Counted from the first letter of the stretch, positions 23,706-64,000 are shown. The stretch: 64,000 nt of DNA from an uncultured Bacteroidales bacterium (GCA_964624065.1 CAZUWF010000009.1:6742-70741); one strand, 5' to 3'. Notes: generated from the letters alone by a model not told the origin. Program-made: numbers and translations.

Positions 23706-25322
23706 ATGGAGATGAATCCAAAAAATTACCATACCGTTGTTGTAGGAGGCGGGATTGCAGGATTGACAGCTACGGCCTATTTGGCCAAGGCGGGAAAAAA
23801 AGTTATATTGATAGAAAAAAACCACGAGGTTGGCGGGTTGGTCAACTCCTTTTGGCGAAACGGTTTCAAATTTGAGGCAGGAGCCAGGGCACTAGAAGAT
23901 GCTGGGATAATTTTTCCATTTCTCAAGGATCTAAACATTGAAATGGAGGTAATGAAAAGCAAGGTTTCGTTGGGCATCGAGAAAAAGGTAATGCACGTTG
24001 AAGACCTAAATAGTTTGGAGGAGTACCGTGAACTTCTGAGGGAGTTTTACCCCGGTAGCCATAAGGATATAGACCACCTTTTTAGGACAATCAAAAAGGT
24101 AATGAAGCACATGGAGATTCTATACGGCATAGAAAACCCTGCCTTCAAGGATGTAAGTAGAGATTTGAAATATGCTTTCACTCAACTATTGCCCTGGCTC
24201 CCTAGATTCATCCTTACTGTTGGAAAAATAAACCGGATGCAACTACCGGTTGAAGAGTACCTTGCGAAAATCATTAATGACAGGCATCTTAGAGATATTA
24301 TCTCACAACACTTCTTCAAAGGCACCCCTTCATTTTTTGCCTTGAGCTATTTTTCGCTTTACCTCGACTATTTTTATCCTAAAGGTGGAGTGGGAACCCT
24401 TTCAGAATCGATCAAAGAAAAAATCATTGAACTTGGCGGAACTATTAAAAACGCAACCCTAGCCAAGGAGGTTATTGCCGATAAAAAAATTGTGATCGAT
24501 GACCAAGGGAATGCCTACACATACGAAAACCTGATTTGGGCAGCCGACCTCAAAACCCTATACAACATTACCGATTTGGGAAACCTGCCGACCAAAGTCA
24601 AAGCCAGGACCCAAAAGTTGAAGGCTAAAATGATGGTCCACAGAGGGAGCGAGTCGGTAATTTCACTTTACTTGCAGATCGACGAACCACTAGAAACCTT
24701 TGGAAAAATTGCCAACGGTCATTTTTTCTACACCCCATCAAGAGAGGGATTGGATCAAACACATCGAGCCGACTTGAACGCTTTGATTGCAAACTTCGAA
24801 GCTACTCCGAAAGAAGAGGTGTTGAAGTGGATGGATAGGTTCACTTCACTCAATACTTACGAGATATCAATTCCGGGTCTCAAGGATAGCAGCTTGGTGC
24901 CTCCCGGAAAAACCGGAATGATAATAAGCCTTCTTGCAGATTATGAGTTGTTTAGAAAGGCCAAGGAGGCAGGCTGGCTTCAAGAGTTTGTTGTCGAATT
25001 TGAAAACCGAATGATTGCCACCTTATCCGAAACAATTTATCCTATACTCGAGGGCAAGATAATTGGTCGGTTCTCGTTCAATCCACTTAGCTTCCAAAAC
25101 CGTATAGGCACCTCAGAAGGTGCAATAGTGGGATGGGCGTTTCATAAGGACTTGCCAGTGAGGAACAAAATACAGCACGGGGCACTCTCGGTTTTAACTC
25201 CCCTCCCATCAGTTTTTCAGGCCGGCCAGTGGGCATACAGCCCGGCCGGTGTACCAATGTCGATCCTTACCGGTAAACTTGCCGCAGACAAGGTTATGAA
25301 GAGCAAGCCCAGGCCTTTTTAA
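23706..25322 (+). CDS. NAD(P)/FAD-dependent oxidoreductase, phytoene-desaturase (CrtI/COG1233)-like
   Basis: YHTVVVGGGIAGLTATAYLAKAGKKVILIEKNHEVGG is a dinucleotide-binding fold. The track start 23616 overlaps the SDR gene; ATG 23706 sits just before the Rossmann motif. Confidence 0.85.
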   Translation: MEMNPKNYHTVVVGGGIAGLTATAYLAKAGKKVILIEKNHEVGGLVNSFWRNGFKFEAGARALEDAGIIFPFLKDLNIEMEVMKSKVSLGIEKKVMHVEDLNSLEEYRELLREFYPGSHKDIDHLFRTIKKVMKHMEILYGIENPAFKDVSRDLKYAFTQLLPWLPRFILTVGKINRMQLPVEEYLAKIINDRHLRDIISQHFFKGTPSFFALSYFSLYLDYFYPKGGVGTLSESIKEKIIELGGTIKNATLAKEVIADKKIVIDDQGNAYTYENLIWAADLKTLYNITDLGNLPTKVKARTQKLKAKMMVHRGSESVISLYLQIDEPLETFGKIANGHFFYTPSREGLDQTHRADLNALIANFEATPKEEVLKWMDRFTSLNTYEISIPGLKDSSLVPPGKTGMIISLLADYELFRKAKEAGWLQEFVVEFENRMIATLSETIYPILEGKIIGRFSFNPLSFQNRIGTSEGAIVGWAFHKDLPVRNKIQHGALSVLTPLPSVFQAGQWAYSPAGVPMSILTGKLAADKVMKSKPRPF

Positions 25323-25333
25323 ACACCACATTA

Positions 25334-26248
25334 ATGGGAAAAATTGAAAAAGCAACAGAAAATAGGTCGGTTTTCGCATCCAAACTATTTCAATTTTTGC
25401 TTGTAATGGTAGGCTTCAAAAGCCGAATGGACAGGAATATTGTAAAAGACAAGTACCGGAAAACTCCAGCAAAAATTCCAAGATCCTTTGAGCGGAAAAA
25501 TACCGTGAAGGTTTCCACTATAGATGGACGAATTGTTTGGAACATTTCCCCCAAATCCCACCACCCCGAAGTAGTAGTAATTTATTTGCACGGCGGAGCT
25601 TATTTTTCCAACCTTACGTTGCTCCATTGGCCACTCATAGCGAAACTACTCGAAAAAACAGGGGCAAAAATCATTGTTCCGGATTACCCTTTGGCACCCA
25701 AATTTACCTGCACCGACACATACACTTTTCTCGACAAACTACACGATAAAGTTTTGGAAGAAAACCCCGCGAAGCGGATTGTTTTCGTGGGCGATTCGGC
25801 AGGTGGGGGTCTGGCAATGGGGTTTGCCCAACAATTAAGGAATGAAGGAAAAACACTGCCCGACCACCTCATACTTTACTCGCCCTGGCTTGACGCATCA
25901 ATGACCGACCCAAATTTAAAGAAATTGGAAAAGACCGAAAAGGTTTTGAGCTTGAAAGGGTTAAAAAAGGCCGGAGAAAAATATGCGGGTTCCCATGATA
26001 TAAAAAACTTCAGGGTAAGTCCCTTGTATGGCAACCTGAAAGGTTTAGGAAAAATCTCAATATTCACTGCAACTCACGAAATGCTTAATGCTGACGCTAA
26101 AAGGTTTAAAGAAAAGGCAATTGAAGCGGGTATTTATCTAAACTACTTCGAATACAGGGGGTTATTTCACTGTTGGGTGCTAGTGCCCTTTCTCGGTGCA
26201 ACCCAAGATGTTGTGCAAAAAACAGCTAGATTGATAAAAACCTGTTGA
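25334..26248 (+). CDS. alpha/beta hydrolase, HSL-type (family IV) esterase/lipase
   Basis: HGGAY oxyanion motif and the GDSAGG nucleophile elbow. Confidence 0.8.
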   Translation: MGKIEKATENRSVFASKLFQFLLVMVGFKSRMDRNIVKDKYRKTPAKIPRSFERKNTVKVSTIDGRIVWNISPKSHHPEVVVIYLHGGAYFSNLTLLHWPLIAKLLEKTGAKIIVPDYPLAPKFTCTDTYTFLDKLHDKVLEENPAKRIVFVGDSAGGGLAMGFAQQLRNEGKTLPDHLILYSPWLDASMTDPNLKKLEKTEKVLSLKGLKKAGEKYAGSHDIKNFRVSPLYGNLKGLGKISIFTATHEMLNADAKRFKEKAIEAGIYLNYFEYRGLFHCWVLVPFLGATQDVVQKTARLIKTC

Positions 26249-26346
26249 TTTTGAATTAACTGGCGTCTCTTTTCAAACTCCCAATTTCTATTCTTATTCT
26301 TCTTTACTTGTTTCCATCAAACTCAATTGTTTCGCATAGGTTTTAA

Positions 26347-26354
26347 TACCTTTG
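26347..26354 (+). promoter_or_regulatory. candidate -7 promoter box for the methyltransferase gene
   Basis: TACCTTTG lies 50 nt upstream of ATG 26405. Confidence 0.5.
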
Positions 26355-26404
26355 CTTGCAAGAATCAGACCGATACAGCCACCCATAAAATTGTTTTCCC
26401 GCCC

Positions 26405-27592
26405 ATGAACTCCCCAGATAGCTTTATTTCCGAAATCTCCAAAAGCCTAAAGAAAAATTCCTTTGTAAAACTGAACCTGGCAAACTACCACGGAAACCAA
26501 GAAGACCTCATTGCCGCTCACGCCAAAATTGCAATTGTAAAGAATACACCTAAGTTGAGTTTTACGTTCAGGCACAAGTCCAAAGATATAGTAAAAAACT
26601 ATTTTTTTGAAGAAGCTATGGTAATAGTCCAAAGTTTGCTAAATAAAAGCGGATTTCGGACCGCCACACTTTTCACGCTGAATAGTGACATCGGCATTGA
26701 AATTAAAAAGGGCAATAACTGCAGGATTTTTAGCAAGAAACCCACATTCGCTTCGCTGCCACCAACAGACCATGATAAGTCTAAGAAAAGAATTATTGAA
26801 ACCACTGACAAGCTTTACCTCCACGAGCTGAAAATAACCAACAAGGAAGGAGGTGTTTACCCCGGTGCTCAAGATAAGTACAGGCAGATAAACCACTACG
26901 TCGAAATTTTGAGCTCACTGCTTAAAGAGTTACCCCAAGGAAAAACCATAAATGTAGCAGATATGGGTGCCGGAAAGGGTTACCTCACTTTTGCACTATA
27001 CGACTACCTAATCAATAACCTGAAAATTCATGCAATTATAACGGGAGTTGAGCATAAGAAGGAACTGGTTGACCTTTGCAACGATATTGCCAAAAAATCA
27101 AACTACGACAAACTTAGTTTCGTGCAGGGTAGTATTGATAGCTACGCAAGCTCCGACATTGACGTATTAATAGCGCTCCATGCCTGCGATACCGCCACCG
27201 ACGACGCCATAGCAAAAGGAATTAGTTGCAACGCCCGGCTAATAGTGGTGGCCCCTTGCTGCCACAAACAAATCCGCAAGGAAATTTCAAGGAATAAGCC
27301 AGACAACCAACTTGATTTCTTGCAGAGGTTCGGCATTTTTCTCGAACGCCAATCAGAAATGATTACCGACGGGATAAGGGCACTAATTCTTGAATACTTT
27401 GGATATAATGTAAAAGTTTTGGAATTCGTTTCCGATGCCCACACTCCCAAAAACATATTGATCATTGGGTCGAAAAAGGGAAAAGTTTTGGATACCCAAA
27501 AATCAGAAATACTTGAAAAGCTGAGATTAACCAAAGATTACTTCGGCATTGGCTACCACCATTTGGAAAAAGTATTGAAAGCAAGCCAATAG
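26405..27592 (+). CDS. class I SAM-dependent methyltransferase with an N-terminal domain of unknown function
   Basis: INVADMGAGKGYLTF (motif I) and LIALHACDTATDDAI. I chose ATG 26405 because the -7 box lies inside the longer track ORF that starts at 26327. Confidence 0.75.
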   Translation: MNSPDSFISEISKSLKKNSFVKLNLANYHGNQEDLIAAHAKIAIVKNTPKLSFTFRHKSKDIVKNYFFEEAMVIVQSLLNKSGFRTATLFTLNSDIGIEIKKGNNCRIFSKKPTFASLPPTDHDKSKKRIIETTDKLYLHELKITNKEGGVYPGAQDKYRQINHYVEILSSLLKELPQGKTINVADMGAGKGYLTFALYDYLINNLKIHAIITGVEHKKELVDLCNDIAKKSNYDKLSFVQGSIDSYASSDIDVLIALHACDTATDDAIAKGISCNARLIVVAPCCHKQIRKEISRNKPDNQLDFLQRFGIFLERQSEMITDGIRALILEYFGYNVKVLEFVSDAHTPKNILIIGSKKGKVLDTQKSEILEKLRLTKDYFGIGYHHLEKVLKASQ

Positions 27593-58610: not shown

Positions 58611-58994
58611 ATGGTGAAAGTTGAGCATTTTACCATGGAGTTCCATTTAGAAACTACCCCAAAATTGCTTTTTACCTTAATTTCCACACCCGAAGGCCTT
58701 ACCCGGTGGTTTGCCCCAACAATCAAAACAGGCGACGACACCTTGGTGTTTCAATGGCCCAGTAACGAGCAAATGGTGCGTGTAATGCACGCTAAGGAGA
58801 GCGAGTATGTAATATTTCAGTGGCTCGAAGATTACCACAAGGGATATGACCTCCAAATGCGAATAGAAACCGAGTCGGATGCCAGCGGGGTTACATTGGT
58901 GATTAGTGATTTTGCCGAGGTTGGCGATGTTGATTTTTCAAAAAGAATTTGGGAATCCTTGGTGGGGAAGCTTCAGAAAATCTTCCATAACTGA
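58611..58994 (+). CDS. SRPBCC/START-like (AHSA1-type) small protein
   Basis: 127 aa. TPKLLFTLISTPEGLTRWFA is a typical AHSA1/START N-terminal pattern. Confidence 0.6.
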   Translation: MVKVEHFTMEFHLETTPKLLFTLISTPEGLTRWFAPTIKTGDDTLVFQWPSNEQMVRVMHAKESEYVIFQWLEDYHKGYDLQMRIETESDASGVTLVISDFAEVGDVDFSKRIWESLVGKLQKIFHN

Positions 58995-59203: not shown

Positions 59204-62200
59204 TTGAAAACAATGTTAAATTCTCACTCTTTTACTCGGTTGAAAATTTTACTTTTTGCTCTAGGAGCCACAATGTTCTTTTCACATAGCCTTATGGCTC
59301 AATATTTTGGAAGGAATAAGCCCTCGTACCGCAGCTTCGATTTCAAGGTTTTTCAAACCCCCCATTTTGATATTTATCATTATTTTGATGGCGATTCGGT
59401 GATTCGTGCATTGGCAGAATCATTCGAGAAATGGTATCAGAGGCACCAGGCGGTTTTTAACGACCCTTTCGAAGAACGAAATCCTATATTTATTTATTCG
59501 AACCACCCCGATTTCCAGCAAACCACTGCAATTAGCGGCTCGATAGATGTTGGCGTACAGGGTGTTACCGAAGCGTTGAAAAACCGTGTGGTTATTCCAG
59601 TGCTTGAAACAAACGCCCAAACTGACCATGTTATCGGACACGAATTGGTGCACGTATTTCATTTCAGGGAAATCATCAACAACGACAGCCTTTCTCTTCA
59701 GTCCTTGCGAAACCTTCCCCTGTGGTTGGTCGAAGGTATGGCAGAGTATTTTTCGATAGGGAGCAACGATCCGCATACCTCAATGATAATTCGTGATGCA
59801 ATACATCAGAAAGATTTCCCAACCTTGAGGCAAATGACAACCAACTTCAGGTACAACCCATACAGGTACGGCCACGCTTTCGTTGCATTTTTCGGGCGTA
59901 CCTGGGGCGACGATTTAATTGCCCCATTTTACGCCGCCACTGCAATGCATGGTCACGAAATTGCATTCGAACGGATAATTGGGTTGAGCGAGTCGGCTGT
60001 TTCGGCCCTTTGGAAAAGCTCGCTTGAAGGATATTATGCTCCTTTGATGGCCGATTCGCTAAGGCACGTCGCGCCGGGTAAAAAGATTGTTTCCGAAACA
60101 AACGGTGGCGAGATTAATATTAGCCCGTCGCTCAGTCCTGATGGCAAGTACATAACTTTTTTTTCCGAACGCGACCTTATTTCCATAGACTTGTTTTTGG
60201 CCGAGGCCGAAACTGGCCGAGTGATTCGGAAACTTAACAGTGCCGCTCGAAACAGAGACATTGACGGGTTTAACTTTTTCGAGTCGGTGGGCACTTGGTC
60301 GCCGGATGGGCGGCAATTTGCTTACGTTACCATTAAAAAGGGCAGGAATCAGTTGATGATTGTTGATGTCAATAGGCCTAATCGAGTAAGTGAGATTATA
60401 ATTCCTGGGGTGAATAGTTTCAACAACCCCGCTTGGTCGCCCGACGGAAAATCAATAGCCCTCAACGGCATTGTGGATGGTAAAACCGACCTCTTTCTGT
60501 TCAACTTGGAGACTTCTGGGGTTACAAACATCACGAAGGATAGGTATTCTTACATTCATTCCACTTGGTCGGCAGATGGTAGGTACCTTGCCTTCGCCAC
60601 TGACAGACCCCAAGCATCGCAAATGGGATCCGGGCTGAACTATAATTTCAACCTAGGTTTCATAGATATGCTTGATCCAGCTTTAAAGGTGAACGTTTTG
60701 GATGTTTTCCCGGGTGCGCAGAATGTTAACCCAGTATTCTCGCCAGATAAGAAAATGCTTTATTTCCTTTCAAATCGCGATGGTTACCGCAACCTTTACT
60801 CTGTTGATTTTGCAACCATGCAGGTGAGCCAACTAACCGATCTTTTTACCGGAATAACAGGAATAACCCAACTTACACCAGCTTTCAATGTAGCGCGGAA
60901 TAGTGGCGAGATCGTTTACACCCATTTCCAAGGGAGGAAATTTTCGATTTACAAGACCAAACCCGAAGATTTTTTTCCTCGAGGGGTTGATGCACTGTTT
61001 GTTGACGCCAGGCATGCCACCATGCCCCCTTTCGACAGGTCCACCAAACCAATTGTTGATACAAATCTTGCCTCCCAACCGAGCGAACAATTATTCCCTG
61101 TGGATTCATTTGCCGAGGTGCCTTTCAAGTCGCGCTTTTCACTTTCGTACATTGGCAATTCTGGAATGGGTGCTTCGGCCAGCAGGTGGGGTGCCGGTAT
61201 GGCCGGAGGAGTTTCGATGTTGTTTAGCGATATAACCGGCGACAACCAAATGTTTGCCAATGTGGCGGTAAATGGTGAGATTTACGATTTTGGTGGACAG
61301 GTAGGTTACCTTAACCAAAAGGGACGATTCAAATGGGGTGGGTCAGTATCGCACGTGCCGTATCGATTCGATTACCTCCAGCTAATAAGAGATGCGGAGG
61401 TGGTCCAAATTGGCGGTCAGCAATACTATTTGGATAACTTGAGATTGGTTACAAATAGAATTTTCGAAGACCAGGTGTCAATTTTTGCCTTCTACCCGTT
61501 TTCCACCACACGTAGGTTTGAAGTTTCGGCCGGGATGTCATGGTATTACTATCGCATCGACGCGTTCAATACCTACTTTTTCAAGTGGGGGGAGTTTTAC
61601 GGCCAAAACCGTCGAAAACTCGAAGCTCCTGAAGGCTTTAACCTTCAACAGTTAGGGGCAGCCTATGTGGGTGACAATTCCTTCTTTGGCATTGGCTCGC
61701 CAATAGACGGAACGAGATACCGGCTTGGATTGGAACAATATTTCGGAACCCTGGAAATGACAAGTGTAACGGTCGATTACAGGCGCTACTTTTTTGCCAA
61801 ACCATTTACTTTTGCTTTCAGGGGAACCCACCTTGGAAGGTATGGTCAAAAGGTTGACAATCAAAATATTTTTTACCCAATGTACCTTGGATATCCAGGT
61901 TTCGTAAGGGGTACCGACGTTCGATCCTTGCAAAAGGTTGAAACAGTTGACTTTCCGGTTGACGATACCACGGTTAGGAACCTGCTCGGCAGCAAGGCTA
62001 TACTTGCTGGTGCAGAAATCAGAATTCCTCTTACGGGCCCTAGGAGGTTGGGATTAATACCCAACAATTTTTTGTTTAGCGAGTTTGTTTTGTTTTTTGA
62101 TGCTGGGGTGGTGTGGCGAAACAACGACAAACTTACCCTAGATAGGAGCCTTGTTCGATCGACCTTCCCGCTGGATTCGAATCCTGCTGTGGAGGGTTAT

Positions 62201-62347
62201 TACCAATACCCGTTTTTTTCGATTGGTCCTGCCTTAAGGATAAACCTTTTCGGCGCCCTAATACTTGAACCTTACCTGGCATTTCCCTTCCAGAAGAGCG
62301 GCCCAACCAAAGGTGTGTGGGGGTTGAACTTTATACCAGGTTGGTAA
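59204..62347 (+). CDS. large outer-membrane protein: HExxH gluzincin-like domain + PD40/TolB-like repeats + Omp85-like C-terminal barrel
   Basis: Signal peptide. HELVH (59639-59653) plus WLVEGMAEY. PD40 repeats are present (SPDGKYITFFSERD, SPDGRQFAYV, SPDGKSIALNG, SADGRYLAFATDR, SPDKKMLYFLSNRDGYRNLY). The C-terminus has GFVRGTD (VRG at 61904-61912), GAEIRIPL and a terminal aromatic W. The start is TTG 59204 or ATG 59213. Confidence 0.75.
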   Translation: MKTMLNSHSFTRLKILLFALGATMFFSHSLMAQYFGRNKPSYRSFDFKVFQTPHFDIYHYFDGDSVIRALAESFEKWYQRHQAVFNDPFEERNPIFIYSNHPDFQQTTAISGSIDVGVQGVTEALKNRVVIPVLETNAQTDHVIGHELVHVFHFREIINNDSLSLQSLRNLPLWLVEGMAEYFSIGSNDPHTSMIIRDAIHQKDFPTLRQMTTNFRYNPYRYGHAFVAFFGRTWGDDLIAPFYAATAMHGHEIAFERIIGLSESAVSALWKSSLEGYYAPLMADSLRHVAPGKKIVSETNGGEINISPSLSPDGKYITFFSERDLISIDLFLAEAETGRVIRKLNSAARNRDIDGFNFFESVGTWSPDGRQFAYVTIKKGRNQLMIVDVNRPNRVSEIIIPGVNSFNNPAWSPDGKSIALNGIVDGKTDLFLFNLETSGVTNITKDRYSYIHSTWSADGRYLAFATDRPQASQMGSGLNYNFNLGFIDMLDPALKVNVLDVFPGAQNVNPVFSPDKKMLYFLSNRDGYRNLYSVDFATMQVSQLTDLFTGITGITQLTPAFNVARNSGEIVYTHFQGRKFSIYKTKPEDFFPRGVDALFVDARHATMPPFDRSTKPIVDTNLASQPSEQLFPVDSFAEVPFKSRFSLSYIGNSGMGASASRWGAGMAGGVSMLFSDITGDNQMFANVAVNGEIYDFGGQVGYLNQKGRFKWGGSVSHVPYRFDYLQLIRDAEVVQIGGQQYYLDNLRLVTNRIFEDQVSIFAFYPFSTTRRFEVSAGMSWYYYRIDAFNTYFFKWGEFYGQNRRKLEAPEGFNLQQLGAAYVGDNSFFGIGSPIDGTRYRLGLEQYFGTLEMTSVTVDYRRYFFAKPFTFAFRGTHLGRYGQKVDNQNIFYPMYLGYPGFVRGTDVRSLQKVETVDFPVDDTTVRNLLGSKAILAGAEIRIPLTGPRRLGLIPNNFLFSEFVLFFDAGVVWRNNDKLTLDRSLVRSTFPLDSNPAVEGYYQYPFFSIGPALRINLFGALILEPYLAFPFQKSGPTKGVWGLNFIPGW

Positions 62348-62422: not shown

Positions 62423-64000
62423 TTACTCTGAATTTGCATTGGATGGGAGTTCAAGTCCATAACCTCTTTTCCTGTCTTCTCTTTTTAGCAGGTAGGCTAG
62501 TAAAACTGAAATCAAGCCACATCCAACCAACATTAGCATTGGATATGTGTAATTGTAAAATGGCACCTCTCCCGCCACCTGAAGTTCGCTAATACGTGCA
62601 GAAATTTCTCCGGCGCTCAATCCTTGAGCGGCAAGGGCTTCTCTTGTGGCCGCAATGGTTTTTTCAACAACTGGGTTAACCTTTGACAAAAGCCAGCCTA
62701 TGCCAAAGAAAAAGGCTCCGAGCCCCCAGTTTTGGAGTGTAAACATTGAGGCATAGGCCGTTCCCAGCCTATTGTCGGGCACAATTTTGGCCACCGCCGG
62801 CCACATAGCCGCGGGAACCAACGAAAAGGCTATCCCGAGACTCAACAAACCCAAGTATGCCAACAAAGGAGTGCTAAACAAGGACAATGCAAGGTTGGCA
62901 AAAATCAACAAGAAGGATCCCAAAATCATAATCGATGCTGCCTTTCCCTTGGTGTCAACGTACTTGCCAAATATAGGGGTGAAAACTATAGACCCAAGCG
63001 GTATAAGCGAAGCTGCCTTCGGACCGTTAACCAGCCAAATCGAGATATTGTCCTTGACCTGGTAAAAAAGAAATATTAAGGCGAGAATCAAGGCCGAAAC
63101 CACCAAAAGCTTGGTTTTCCTGTCCTTGAAAAAATCCGGAATTAGTGTAAAGCCCAAAGCGAACAAAAAGATAATAACAAATACGGCAGCACTGCCCAGG
63201 CCTTCGCTGCCAAATAGGAGAATCGAAGCCCCTTCGGGCAAGTTGTACGAAAAGCCAAATTTGTTTACCAGAAGATCGGGAGCGTATTGTATGAACGGAA
63301 AGACAGAGGCATAAAAGGCAACGCATAAAAAAGCGATGAAAATAAAGGCTTTTGTTGATATGAGTTTTACCAGGTCTCTTAATCGAAAGTCTTCATCTAT
63401 TTGATCCTGGCCAAGAGAAACTTTTCTTGTCTTAAGCTGCTTGTCAAACTTGACGTCAAAAAACAAGAAAACCACAAACATCAGGAAGGTTGCCACAAGG
63501 GTTGCGGCTCCAAAAACCACGGATGGTGCAACATAAGGTCCGCCAATATTAAGCGTAATCGCAAGTGCAAGGGCTGTGCCTAACCTGCCAAAACCAACAC
63601 TAATTGCCATTCCAAGGGCTAGCTCGTGACCCTTGAACCATTTGACAATGGCCCTGGTTACCACTACCAGCGCAGACTCTAACCCCATTCCGAATAACAG
63701 TCGTCCGATTATTAAGCCTGTCAGGATTGAAGACTTGTCGGTGCCGAAATAACCGGCCGTGGTCATTGCCGAAATTATTCCTCCCAAAACAGTTATCCCT
63801 CCGAAAAGTAACCCTGCCACCTTGACTCCAAACTTATCAATTATTATTCCACCCACTATTATCATTCCAAACATATTGGGAAGGGTCATGAAAAATAGTA
63901 TCTTGCCAAACTCTTCGCTAGATATTCCGTACTGCGACTCCAACAGCCCCCGCAATGGTGCAAAGAAATCGTAAAAATAATAGGTCGAAAACATTAGGCC
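62423..64000 (-). CDS. MFS transporter (MFSD1-like), N-terminus beyond the right edge
   Basis: Polytopic. The frame stays open to position 64000 upstream of the track Met (63994). YYFYDFFAPL resembles the region after TM1 in this family, so TM1 is missing. Confidence 0.7.
   Translation of the reverse strand, partial: GLMFSTYYFYDFFAPLRGLLESQYGISSEEFGKILFFMTLPNMFGMIIVGGIIIDKFGVKVAGLLFGGITVLGGIISAMTTAGYFGTDKSSILTGLIIGRLLFGMGLESALVVVTRAIVKWFKGHELALGMAISVGFGRLGTALALAITLNIGGPYVAPSVVFGAATLVATFLMFVVFLFFDVKFDKQLKTRKVSLGQDQIDEDFRLRDLVKLISTKAFIFIAFLCVAFYASVFPFIQYAPDLLVNKFGFSYNLPEGASILLFGSEGLGSAAVFVIIFLFALGFTLIPDFFKDRKTKLLVVSALILALIFLFYQVKDNISIWLVNGPKAASLIPLGSIVFTPIFGKYVDTKGKAASIMILGSFLLIFANLALSLFSTPLLAYLGLLSLGIAFSLVPAAMWPAVAKIVPDNRLGTAYASMFTLQNWGLGAFFFGIGWLLSKVNPVVEKTIAATREALAAQGLSAGEISARISELQVAGEVPFYNYTYPMLMLVGCGLISVLLAYLLKREDRKRGYGLELPSNANSE

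Follow-up and report, generated by a model that had tools for sequence, protein, structure and literature searches.

A three-part Omp85-type protein with a gluzincin-like domain and a TolB-like propeller in an uncultured Bacteroidales bacterium

The open reading frame at positions 59204 to 62347 (+ strand) of the window, i.e., the whole 64,000-nucleotide stretch of DNA that was analysed, encodes a protein in which a signal peptide is followed by a gluzincin-like peptidase domain, a PD40/TolB-like β-propeller, and a divergent Omp85-type barrel. That this three-part architecture is real, and that the protein belongs to a family already catalogued as "WD40-like Omp85" or "OMP-TolB-like" proteins, is very probable. 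By analogy with other Omp85 proteins and with propeller-bearing peptidases, it is most likely (with a probability of roughly 0.6) a zinc peptidase that is anchored in the outer membrane, faces the periplasm, and has a propeller beside its catalytic domain. This figure refers to the protein being both periplasmic and catalytically active, and we infer the topology, the zinc binding, and the activity alike. The choice of any one substrate class is doubtful at best.

Gene start, peptidase-like domain, and propeller

The reading frame was described as encoding 1047 amino acids, and this holds when it is read from a TTG, with the stop codon included in the end coordinate. However, the translation start is probably the ATG at 59213 (+ strand; Met4, giving a protein of 1044 aa) and not the TTG at 59204, because Met4 shows at least 90% conservation across the 42 aligned family sequences and the nearest homologues are 1044 aa long. 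Residue numbers used here count from the TTG. A Sec-type signal peptide, MLNSHSFTRLKILLFALGATMFFSHSLMA (59213 to 59299, + strand), can be read from the sequence, in agreement with the preliminary description; a lipobox Cys is absent, and the full-length model places a helix at aa 2–29 in this region. Cleavage is predicted (by inference rather than by computation) after ...SLMA and before Gln33, which would form the mature N terminus and is invariant in the family alignment of 42 sequences. A Gln at this place is consistent with the Bacteroidetes "Q-rule" for signal-peptide cleavage (PMC10653852). A scan for promoters and terminators gave counts no higher than the shuffle level. Every motif quoted in the preliminary description was found in the ORF translation at the residues claimed for it.

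The putative gluzincin-like (MA-clan) peptidase domain spans approximately aa 45–290 (59336 to 60073, + strand), and the full-length model (pLDDT 77.6) depicts it as a small β-sheet followed by a helical bundle. The motif HELVH (aa 146–150; 59639 to 59653, + strand), a candidate for zinc binding and catalysis, is placed in helix 137–159, and the downstream WLVEGMAEY (aa 174–182; 59723 to 59749, + strand) in helix 173–185. Within the latter, Glu177 lies 27 residues past His150 and is a candidate third zinc ligand. Residues H146, E147, E177, and E181 are invariant among the 42 aligned sequences, while H150 is at least 90% conserved; one homologue (P0048) carries HELVY in place of HELVH. Moreover, HExxH and WxVEGxAEY are both present in all 92 full-length relatives, the identity of which goes down to 39%, and the spacing from the second His to the Glu is 27 residues in 82 of the 92. 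The claim of an N-terminal domain with an MA-clan-type HExxH...E arrangement thus stands, with its motifs in place and strictly conserved. With HExxH and the Glu that follows it retained in 92/92 relatives, sequence conservation argues for a catalytically active enzyme rather than a pseudo-protease.

The profile Peptidase_MA_2 (PF13485) scored 22.3 bits with the full protein and 25.6 bits with the domain alone, both below its cut-off of 32.4 bits, and was matched by 37 of 42 orthologues at E ≤0.01 (best E 2.3e-9). Matches of the N-terminal domain to M9, BSP, and M1 profiles were weak, and no peptidase was among the PDB sequences found by the family profiles.

The next part of the protein, approximately aa 293–595 (60080 to 60988, + strand), is a predicted six-bladed PD40/TolB-like β-propeller, as indicated by PD40, TolB, and model matches; the model contains approximately 24 strands here, with a pLDDT mostly between 85 and 94. 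The Pfam PD40 profile matches five stretches between approximately aa 299 and 560 (E 2e-29), which confirms the earlier count of at least five repeats at roughly aa 300–560, and TIGR02800 (TolB) aligns with the propeller part alone (E 1.6e-30, 106.4 bits vs. a cut-off of 343.15). These PD40 and TolB profile matches are far above chance. TolB chains in the PDB were found at E 5e-14 with the protein and at E 5e-21 with the family profile, and in a Foldseek search with the full-length model the top matches were TolB (E 1e-11), followed by BamA barrels. Matches to DPPIV_N and to S9/tricorn proteins also fall on the propeller.

The propeller leads into a linker (approximately aa 596–645; 60989 to 61138, + strand), which is modelled as one short helix and short strands and in which the model contains no POTRA-like β-α-α-β-β unit. 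As PF07244 has no match in this linker or anywhere else in the protein, the view that a propeller and a protease-like domain take the place of POTRA domains is upheld.

The C-terminal barrel

On the basis of sequence and modelling, the C terminus is a divergent Omp85-type barrel, a designation that does not imply a strand count of 16. The predicted transmembrane β-barrel covers approximately aa 646–1047 (61139 to 62344, + strand), and the evidence for it comes from the PF01103 scores of orthologues, the model, and Foldseek. The preliminary description had proposed such a barrel from short motifs; the proposal is now backed independently, with five of six orthologues passing PF01103 and with Omp85 barrels making up all of the top 50 Foldseek matches.

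Scanned directly with Pfam and NCBIfam, the C-terminal 405 aa yielded nothing. PF01103 gave no match to this part alone even at E ≤10, and when the genome was searched with it at E ≤0.01, only two other genes came up, not this ORF. At the same threshold, PF01103 matched eight of 42 family members (best E 8.9e-12). Six orthologues (53–60% identity), five of which are among these eight Omp85-positive members, were rescanned singly; five of the six passed the PF01103 cut-off (24 bits) with scores of 31–42 bits, and the orthologue matches span profile positions 127–309 and residues ~820–1027.

Modelled alone with AlphaFold, the barrel has a pLDDT of 84.1 and a pTM of 0.79. When this model was compared with the PDB using Foldseek, the top 50 matches were all BamA, TamA, or Sam50 (E 6e-9 to 5e-7, probability 1.0, TMq 0.45–0.52, rmsd ~10 Å). 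DSSP assigns 17 strand segments to the barrel-only model, with loop 6 between the 12th and 13th, i.e., 12 before and five after the loop, compared with the canonical 11 + 5; in the first hairpin, the turn has a pLDDT below 50.

The sequence VRGT (aa 901–904; 61904 to 61915, + strand), which corresponds to the loop-6 (V/I)RG(Y/F) motif, is part of the segment LGYPGFVRGTD (aa 895–905) within a long loop at aa 881–930. Both R902 and G903 are invariant in the 42 sequences. Across the family the consensus reads VRGY or IRGY, whereas a Thr occupies the usual aromatic position here. The second motif, FxDxG, is represented by FFDAG (aa 964–968; 62093 to 62107, + strand), in which D966 and G968 are invariant in the same set, and is placed by the model in the second strand after loop 6 (957–971). 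In BamA and FhaC, the FxDxG strand is β13, and the two hallmark motifs thus follow each other in the canonical order here. The segment GAEIRIPL occupies aa 936–943, and the ORF ends in ...NFIPGW, with Trp (aa 1047) as the last residue. An hhalign comparison of the barrel alignment with 17 Bacteroidota BamA barrels gave E 0.0026 and a probability of 11%; despite this weak score, VRG, ExRxP, and FxDxG are in register with Bacteroidota BamA, VRGT being aligned with lRGY and FFDAG with FvEaG. The family barrel profile found no BamA among PDB sequences.

Known relatives and gene neighbourhood

The combination of protease, propeller, and barrel without POTRA domains had been regarded as unusual. The architecture is real, but it is not new, having been catalogued since 2014 as the "WD40-like" Omp85 subfamily (Heinz & Lithgow 2014, Front Microbiol 5:370, PMC4104836; main text and Tables S2 and S3). 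This cluster of ~62 proteins, which includes Bacteroidetes members, was defined by the PF01103 and PF07676 profiles, and its Phyre2 matches are BamA/TamA at 100, TolB at 100, and M1/M9 aminopeptidases at ~99; the N-terminal M1/M9 "aminopeptidase" fold match is given in Table S3, in the supplement only (PMC4104836). The order of the domains is the same, with a PD40/WD40-like propeller N-terminal to the PF01103 barrel and TolB as the best propeller match, and we found no difference in kind, the likeness being one of domain layout. It had also been considered that the architecture might turn out to be a well-described family. This is partly so: the family is catalogued (PMC4104836) rather than well described, because a search of the openly accessible literature found no experimental study of it.

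A second group of relatives, the "OMP-TolB-like" or "FhaC-TolB-like" proteins (PMC12204202, Mol Biol Evol 2025), likewise pairs a six-bladed, TolB-like propeller in the periplasm with an outer-membrane barrel, and its members, like those of the present family, are often auto-annotated as TolB. Their propeller is accompanied by a Rossmann-like domain, whereas a helical HExxH peptidase-like domain is found here; the two sets may or may not be one family. TolB itself (TIGR02800) is the best match to the six-bladed PD40 propeller in both sequence and fold. However, its equivalog cut-off is not reached, and the 1047-aa protein joins the propeller to a peptidase on one side and a barrel on the other. 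For the family, the labels "tolB protein precursor" and "Tol biopolymer transport system component" given in databases are misleading.

With BamA and TamA, the protein has in common the barrel fold, the loop-6 VRG, the FxDxG motif, and the C-terminal aromatic residue, but these proteins carry POTRA domains, while the present protein has none and itself falls below the PF01103 threshold. A PD40-type propeller next to a peptidase is also known from the S9 family (DPP IV and acylaminoacyl peptidase) and from tricorn. There, the enzyme is a serine hydrolase, in contrast to a zinc HExxH domain N-terminal to the propeller here, and gating by the propeller is an analogy only.

The family is widespread in Bacteroidota. 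Close homologues of the full-length protein number more than 7,500, and the barrel profile retrieved only its own ~1,800 representative clusters (50% identity). The host genome encodes a canonical BamA of its own, which has POTRA domains, and also Skp, both on another contig, and the ORF at 59204 to 62347 is therefore an accessory Omp85. Identifying the substrate of such a widespread accessory branch would add a component to the envelope biology of Bacteroidota; this particular copy contributes little beyond one more member and its clade-specific gene neighbours.

No partner gene is conserved across the family at 92 loci, where neighbours are clade-specific only. The loci examined for the present clade have no T9SS, murein-recycling, or bamA-tamB context, and tol-pal context is absent near the gene. 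A PD40 protein of 1078 aa, encoded on contig 13 of the host genome, was considered as a paralogue and rejected, as it is a tricorn-type S41 protease that has only the propeller in common with the ORF.

Possible roles in the cell envelope

In the reading that we favour, the barrel would reside in the outer membrane in the manner of other Omp85 proteins, with the N-terminal 600 residues hanging into the periplasm. The N-terminal domain would be an active zinc peptidase tethered beneath the outer membrane; a zinc site conserved this strictly points to a real enzyme in this position. If S9 and tricorn peptidases are a guide, the propeller next to it may gate or capture substrates, for which periplasmic oligopeptides and envelope proteins are candidates. 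The preliminary description had allowed for either a surface or a periplasmic protein; given the topology of Omp85 proteins, a surface location appears less likely than a periplasmic one.

Other roles can be envisaged for the same domains. A single-chain envelope quality-control device, resembling BamA, BamB, and BepA combined, is unlikely. The barrel seam would here engage nascent or stalled outer-membrane proteins, and these clients would be degraded by the zinc peptidase of the same chain, with the propeller serving as scaffold. The Omp85 barrel has retained the conserved L6 and FxDxG motifs, and Heinz & Lithgow likened the family to a BamA-BamB fusion (PMC4104836). There is also a precedent in E. 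coli, where OMPs that stall at BAM are removed by M48 zinc proteases, BepA among them (PMC13067283). However, the peptidase is MA_2/M1/M9-like and not M48, POTRA domains for receiving substrates are absent, and the gene is adjacent to neither bamA nor skp, which are both on another contig. The related suggestion that the accessory barrel captures stalled or misfolded β-barrel or envelope proteins and hands them to its own propeller-gated zinc peptidase is a long shot; if true, the roles of BamA, BamB, and BepA, which are separate in E. coli, would be united in one polypeptide.

It is somewhat more improbable than the quality-control device that the protein coordinates the cell wall with the outer membrane, the propeller and peptidase acting on peptidoglycan, its associated proteins, or its synthases. 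A factor of this kind would partly replace Tol-Pal, for which one survey identified no loci in Bacteroidetes (PMC12204202), an absence that is in line with the idea. So is the gene order in 28 loci, where a class A PBP1A gene lies 14–194 bp upstream of the orthologue on the same strand; 26 of these loci are of Sphingobacteriales type (Pedobacter, Olivibacter, Albibacterium, Hufsiella, and related MAGs), but the synteny is absent from this window and from the closest relatives. Moreover, the host genome has no TolB-sized PD40 protein, its PD40 matches falling in open frames of 653–1084 aa. On the other hand, the TIGR02800 score is 106 bits vs. a cut-off of 343, and neither an OmpA nor a Pal partner is present in the vicinity. 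A role at the cell wall is also disfavoured by the type of peptidase, since peptidoglycan is usually cleaved by members of M15, M23, or M14 rather than by MA-clan gluzincins.

A type Vd-like self-exporter, the barrel of which would translocate its own peptidase and propeller to the cell surface to digest external proteins for nutrition, is very unlikely. Export of an N-terminal enzyme by an Omp85 barrel is known from PlpD-type proteins (PMC4104836); these keep a POTRA domain, however, and here there is none. The passenger would comprise 600 aa, including a closed propeller. In favour of self-export, a POT-family peptide:H+ symporter gene is convergent just downstream in ~9 of the closest loci and is the second gene downstream in the host genome, but genes in convergent orientation do not share a transcript. 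By NCBIfam, the MFS gene downstream is not AmpG-like. In Bacteroidota, proteins normally reach the cell surface by way of lipoprotein export signals or a T9SS C-terminal domain, whereas the present protein lacks a lipobox Cys and ends in the barrel itself.

Finally, the HExxH domain might bind polypeptides without cleaving them, the pseudo-protease chaperone of the preliminary description; the subthreshold Peptidase_MA_2 match and the HELVY of P0048 would fit, but pseudo-enzymes usually lose their catalytic residues and those of this family are strictly conserved, with H146, E147, E177, and E181 invariant and H150 kept at the level of at least 90% in the 42 sequences and HExxH present in all 92 further relatives, which makes this option highly improbable.

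The reading frame and its N-terminal domains

The forward-strand frame at 59204-62347 encodes 1047 aa counted from a TTG, with the stop codon included in the end coordinate, as the preliminary description had it. The motifs quoted there were all found at the residues assigned to them: HELVH (aa 146-150), WLVEGMAEY (aa 174-182), LGYPGFVRGTD (aa 895-905), GAEIRIPL (aa 936-943), FFDAG (aa 964-968) and the terminal Trp (aa 1047). The TTG opens the longest ORF, and three codons further on lies an ATG (59213) encoding Met4. This Met reaches at least 90% conservation in the family alignment and the closest homologues measure 1044 aa, so that 59213 is the likely start; the mechanical ORF call probably overextends the gene by three codons. 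The N terminus reads as a Sec signal peptide with no lipobox Cys. Gln33, directly after the residues SLMA, is invariant, and the predicted cleavage at this position would be in line with the Bacteroidetes "Q-rule" for signal peptides as outlined in PMC10653852.

Support for the propeller is good. Five stretches match Pfam PD40 (E 2e-29), bearing out the PD40-type repeats proposed earlier. The TolB equivalog profile TIGR02800 is also matched (E 1.6e-30), with a score of 106 bits that is far under its cut-off of 343. TolB chains are both the best PDB sequence matches (E 5e-14; 5e-21 with the family profile) and the best Foldseek matches of the full-length model (E 1e-11). Mean pLDDT of this model is 77.6 and mostly 85-94 in the propeller, where about 24 strands across aa 293-595 correspond to six blades.

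The N-terminal domain (aa 45-290) is modeled as a small sheet followed by helices, with HELVH falling within helix 137-159 and Glu177 within helix 173-185. Its assignment is weaker by profile and strong by conservation. Peptidase_MA_2 scores 22-26 bits on the protein, under the cut-off of 32.4, and the M9, BSP and M1 profiles match more weakly still; the same Peptidase_MA_2 profile matches 37 of 42 orthologues (best E 2.3e-9). H146, E147, E177 and E181 are invariant in the 42 aligned sequences, with conservation of at least 90% at H150. Moreover, HExxH and WxVEGxAEY are both present in all 92 full-length relatives, at identities as low as 39%, and in 82 of these the Glu follows the second His at a spacing of 27. 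Since the zinc-site motifs are conserved, the sequences argue for an active zinc peptidase rather than a pseudo-enzyme.

One aligned homologue (P0048) reads HELVY, with Tyr replacing the second zinc-binding His, and is the sole exception among the 42. NHPDFQQT and G-V-T-E-A-L-K-N-R, two further motifs found 20-45 residues ahead of HExxH (window 59501-59587; aa 100-128), are invariant or near-invariant, and the model is least certain here (pLDDT <50 at aa 103-122). In its position and its Glu, GVTEA may be reminiscent of GxMEN, the exopeptidase motif in M1 aminopeptidases.

The C-terminal barrel

Direct profile evidence for a barrel from the protein's own sequence is negative. A Pfam scan of the C-terminal 405 aa alone gave no match, a PF01103 scan of the source genome found just two genes, the canonical BamA and a second one, and the family barrel profile found no BamA among PDB sequences. 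The orthologues and the models point to an Omp85-type fold. PF01103 is matched by 8 of the 42 orthologues (best E 8.9e-12); when six were examined one by one, five reached 31-42 bits (cut-off 24) over profile positions 127-309. The barrel-only AlphaFold model (pLDDT 84.1, pTM 0.79) has BamA, TamA or Sam50 as all of its best 50 Foldseek PDB matches (probability 1.0, TMq 0.45-0.52); with the full-length model, BamA barrels rank after TolB.

BamA and FhaC share a hallmark pair, a VRG(F/Y) motif in loop 6 and an FxDxG motif on β13. The model shows the same motif order: VRG lies inside a 50-residue loop (aa 881-930), followed by five strand segments, the second of which carries FFDAG. A weak hhalign alignment to 17 Bacteroidota BamA barrels (E 0.0026, probability 11%) places VRGY on lRGY, EiRxP on ELRyP and FxDaGxaW on FvEaGnxW. 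The barrel, proposed from short motifs, is supported by orthologue profile matches, fold search and motif register, but a count of 16 strands is not established: DSSP gives 12 strand segments before loop 6 versus 11 in the canonical barrel, and the first hairpin has a poorly predicted turn. POTRA domains were found neither by Pfam scans nor in the full-length model.

The residue following loop-6 VRG is Thr or Ala in the protein and its two nearest relatives, and Tyr or Phe in the family. The motif at 61904-61915 is VRGT, as in an 86%-identical homologue; a 76%-identical one has VRGA, and the remaining family VRGY, IRGY or MRGF. This small clade has lost the conserved aromatic.

Subfamily and distribution

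The domain anatomy first described, with propeller, HExxH...E domain and Omp85-type barrel, is right, but the architecture is not new. Heinz & Lithgow (2014; PMC4104836) defined a "WD40-like" Omp85 cluster by the PF01103 and PF07676 profiles and likened the cluster to a fusion of BamA and BamB. Table S3 of that study, which includes Bacteroidetes proteins, lists Phyre2 matches of members to BamA or TamA (100), TolB (100) and M1/M9-type "aminopeptidases" (about 99). "OMP-TolB-like" proteins, often auto-annotated as TolB, have also been described (PMC12204202, 2025), and tol-pal loci are not identifiable in Bacteroidetes according to the same study. We found no experimental study of the family in the open literature. 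The protein is a further member of a catalogued, widespread, uncharacterised Omp85 subfamily.

A full-length search returned >7,500 homologues, about 1020-1060 aa long and mostly from metagenome bins of Bacteroidales and other Bacteroidota, with names such as "Tol biopolymer transport system component", "tolB protein precursor" and "BamA/TamA family outer membrane protein". Among named genomes, those carrying orthologues include many species of Pedobacter along with Olivibacter, Nafulsella, Cesiribacter and Anaerorudis. At E <= 1e-20, 120 of 201 genomes of the phylum have a match, often with two or three paralogues each, and some of these matches span just the query's peptidase and propeller region; the four genomes sampled from the same order have none. 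The barrel profile recruited 1,778 representative clusters, with lengths of about 1000-1100 aa among those that are full-length. In nearly all matches listed the barrel is C-terminal, so this barrel type is tied to the peptidase-propeller-barrel architecture.

The source genome also encodes a canonical BamA (869 aa, POTRA and Omp85 domains) adjoining skp. Both genes lie on contig C13, on the opposite strand and beyond mutS, 3' of a gene for a 1078-aa tricorn-type protease homologue with PD40, Tricorn_C1, PDZ_Tricorn and Peptidase_S41 domains (L136:2832-6068, +; C13 about 24331-27567). The other PF01103 gene (contig C18:965-1594), with a 531-aa open frame at the contig start, matches only the profile's second half and is probably a TamA- or TamL-like Omp85 truncated where the contig ends.

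Possible function and gene context

Omp85 topology would place the N-terminal 600 residues toward the periplasm. The mechanism we favor is an active zinc peptidase tethered to the outer membrane. The adjacent propeller may capture or filter substrates, by analogy with S9 and tricorn peptidases. That the protein is instead a fused BAM-type quality-control device is unlikely. Slightly less likely is a TolB-like cell-wall coordination factor, of which a class A PBP1A gene (about 817 aa; TIGR02074, E 1e-143) gives a weak hint: it lies 14-194 bp upstream of the orthologue on the same strand in 28 loci (L068-L096 range, L006 and L007), for example L069:3349-5853 ahead of the orthologue at L069:6001-9114. 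These loci belong, in 26 of 28 cases, to Pedobacter, Olivibacter, Albibacterium, Hufsiella and related MAGs, and the adjacency may reflect an operon link to peptidoglycan synthesis limited to this Sphingobacteriales-type clade. A PlpD-like self-exporter displaying its enzyme on the surface is improbable, and a pseudo-protease, given the invariant zinc-site residues and the motifs kept in every full-length relative, very improbable.

No partner gene is conserved family-wide across 92 loci, and in the clade of this protein no T9SS, murein-recycling or bamA-tamB genes were seen around the orthologue. Upstream of the putative tethered peptidase, after a 210-bp gap, is a START-like gene on the same strand (58611-58994, +), then hpt, adk, obg and a NUDIX gene on the opposite strand, and beyond them rplT (+). 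Downstream and convergent are, in this order, genes for an MFS_1 transporter (62423-63994, -), a POT/PTR2 peptide symporter (L135:1958-3868, i.e., contig C9 about 70957-72867, -) and a metallophosphoesterase. In about nine of the closest relatives, a POT peptide:H+ symporter gene lies directly 3' of the orthologue, convergent and 77-196 bp away, a weak hint of peptide scavenging.
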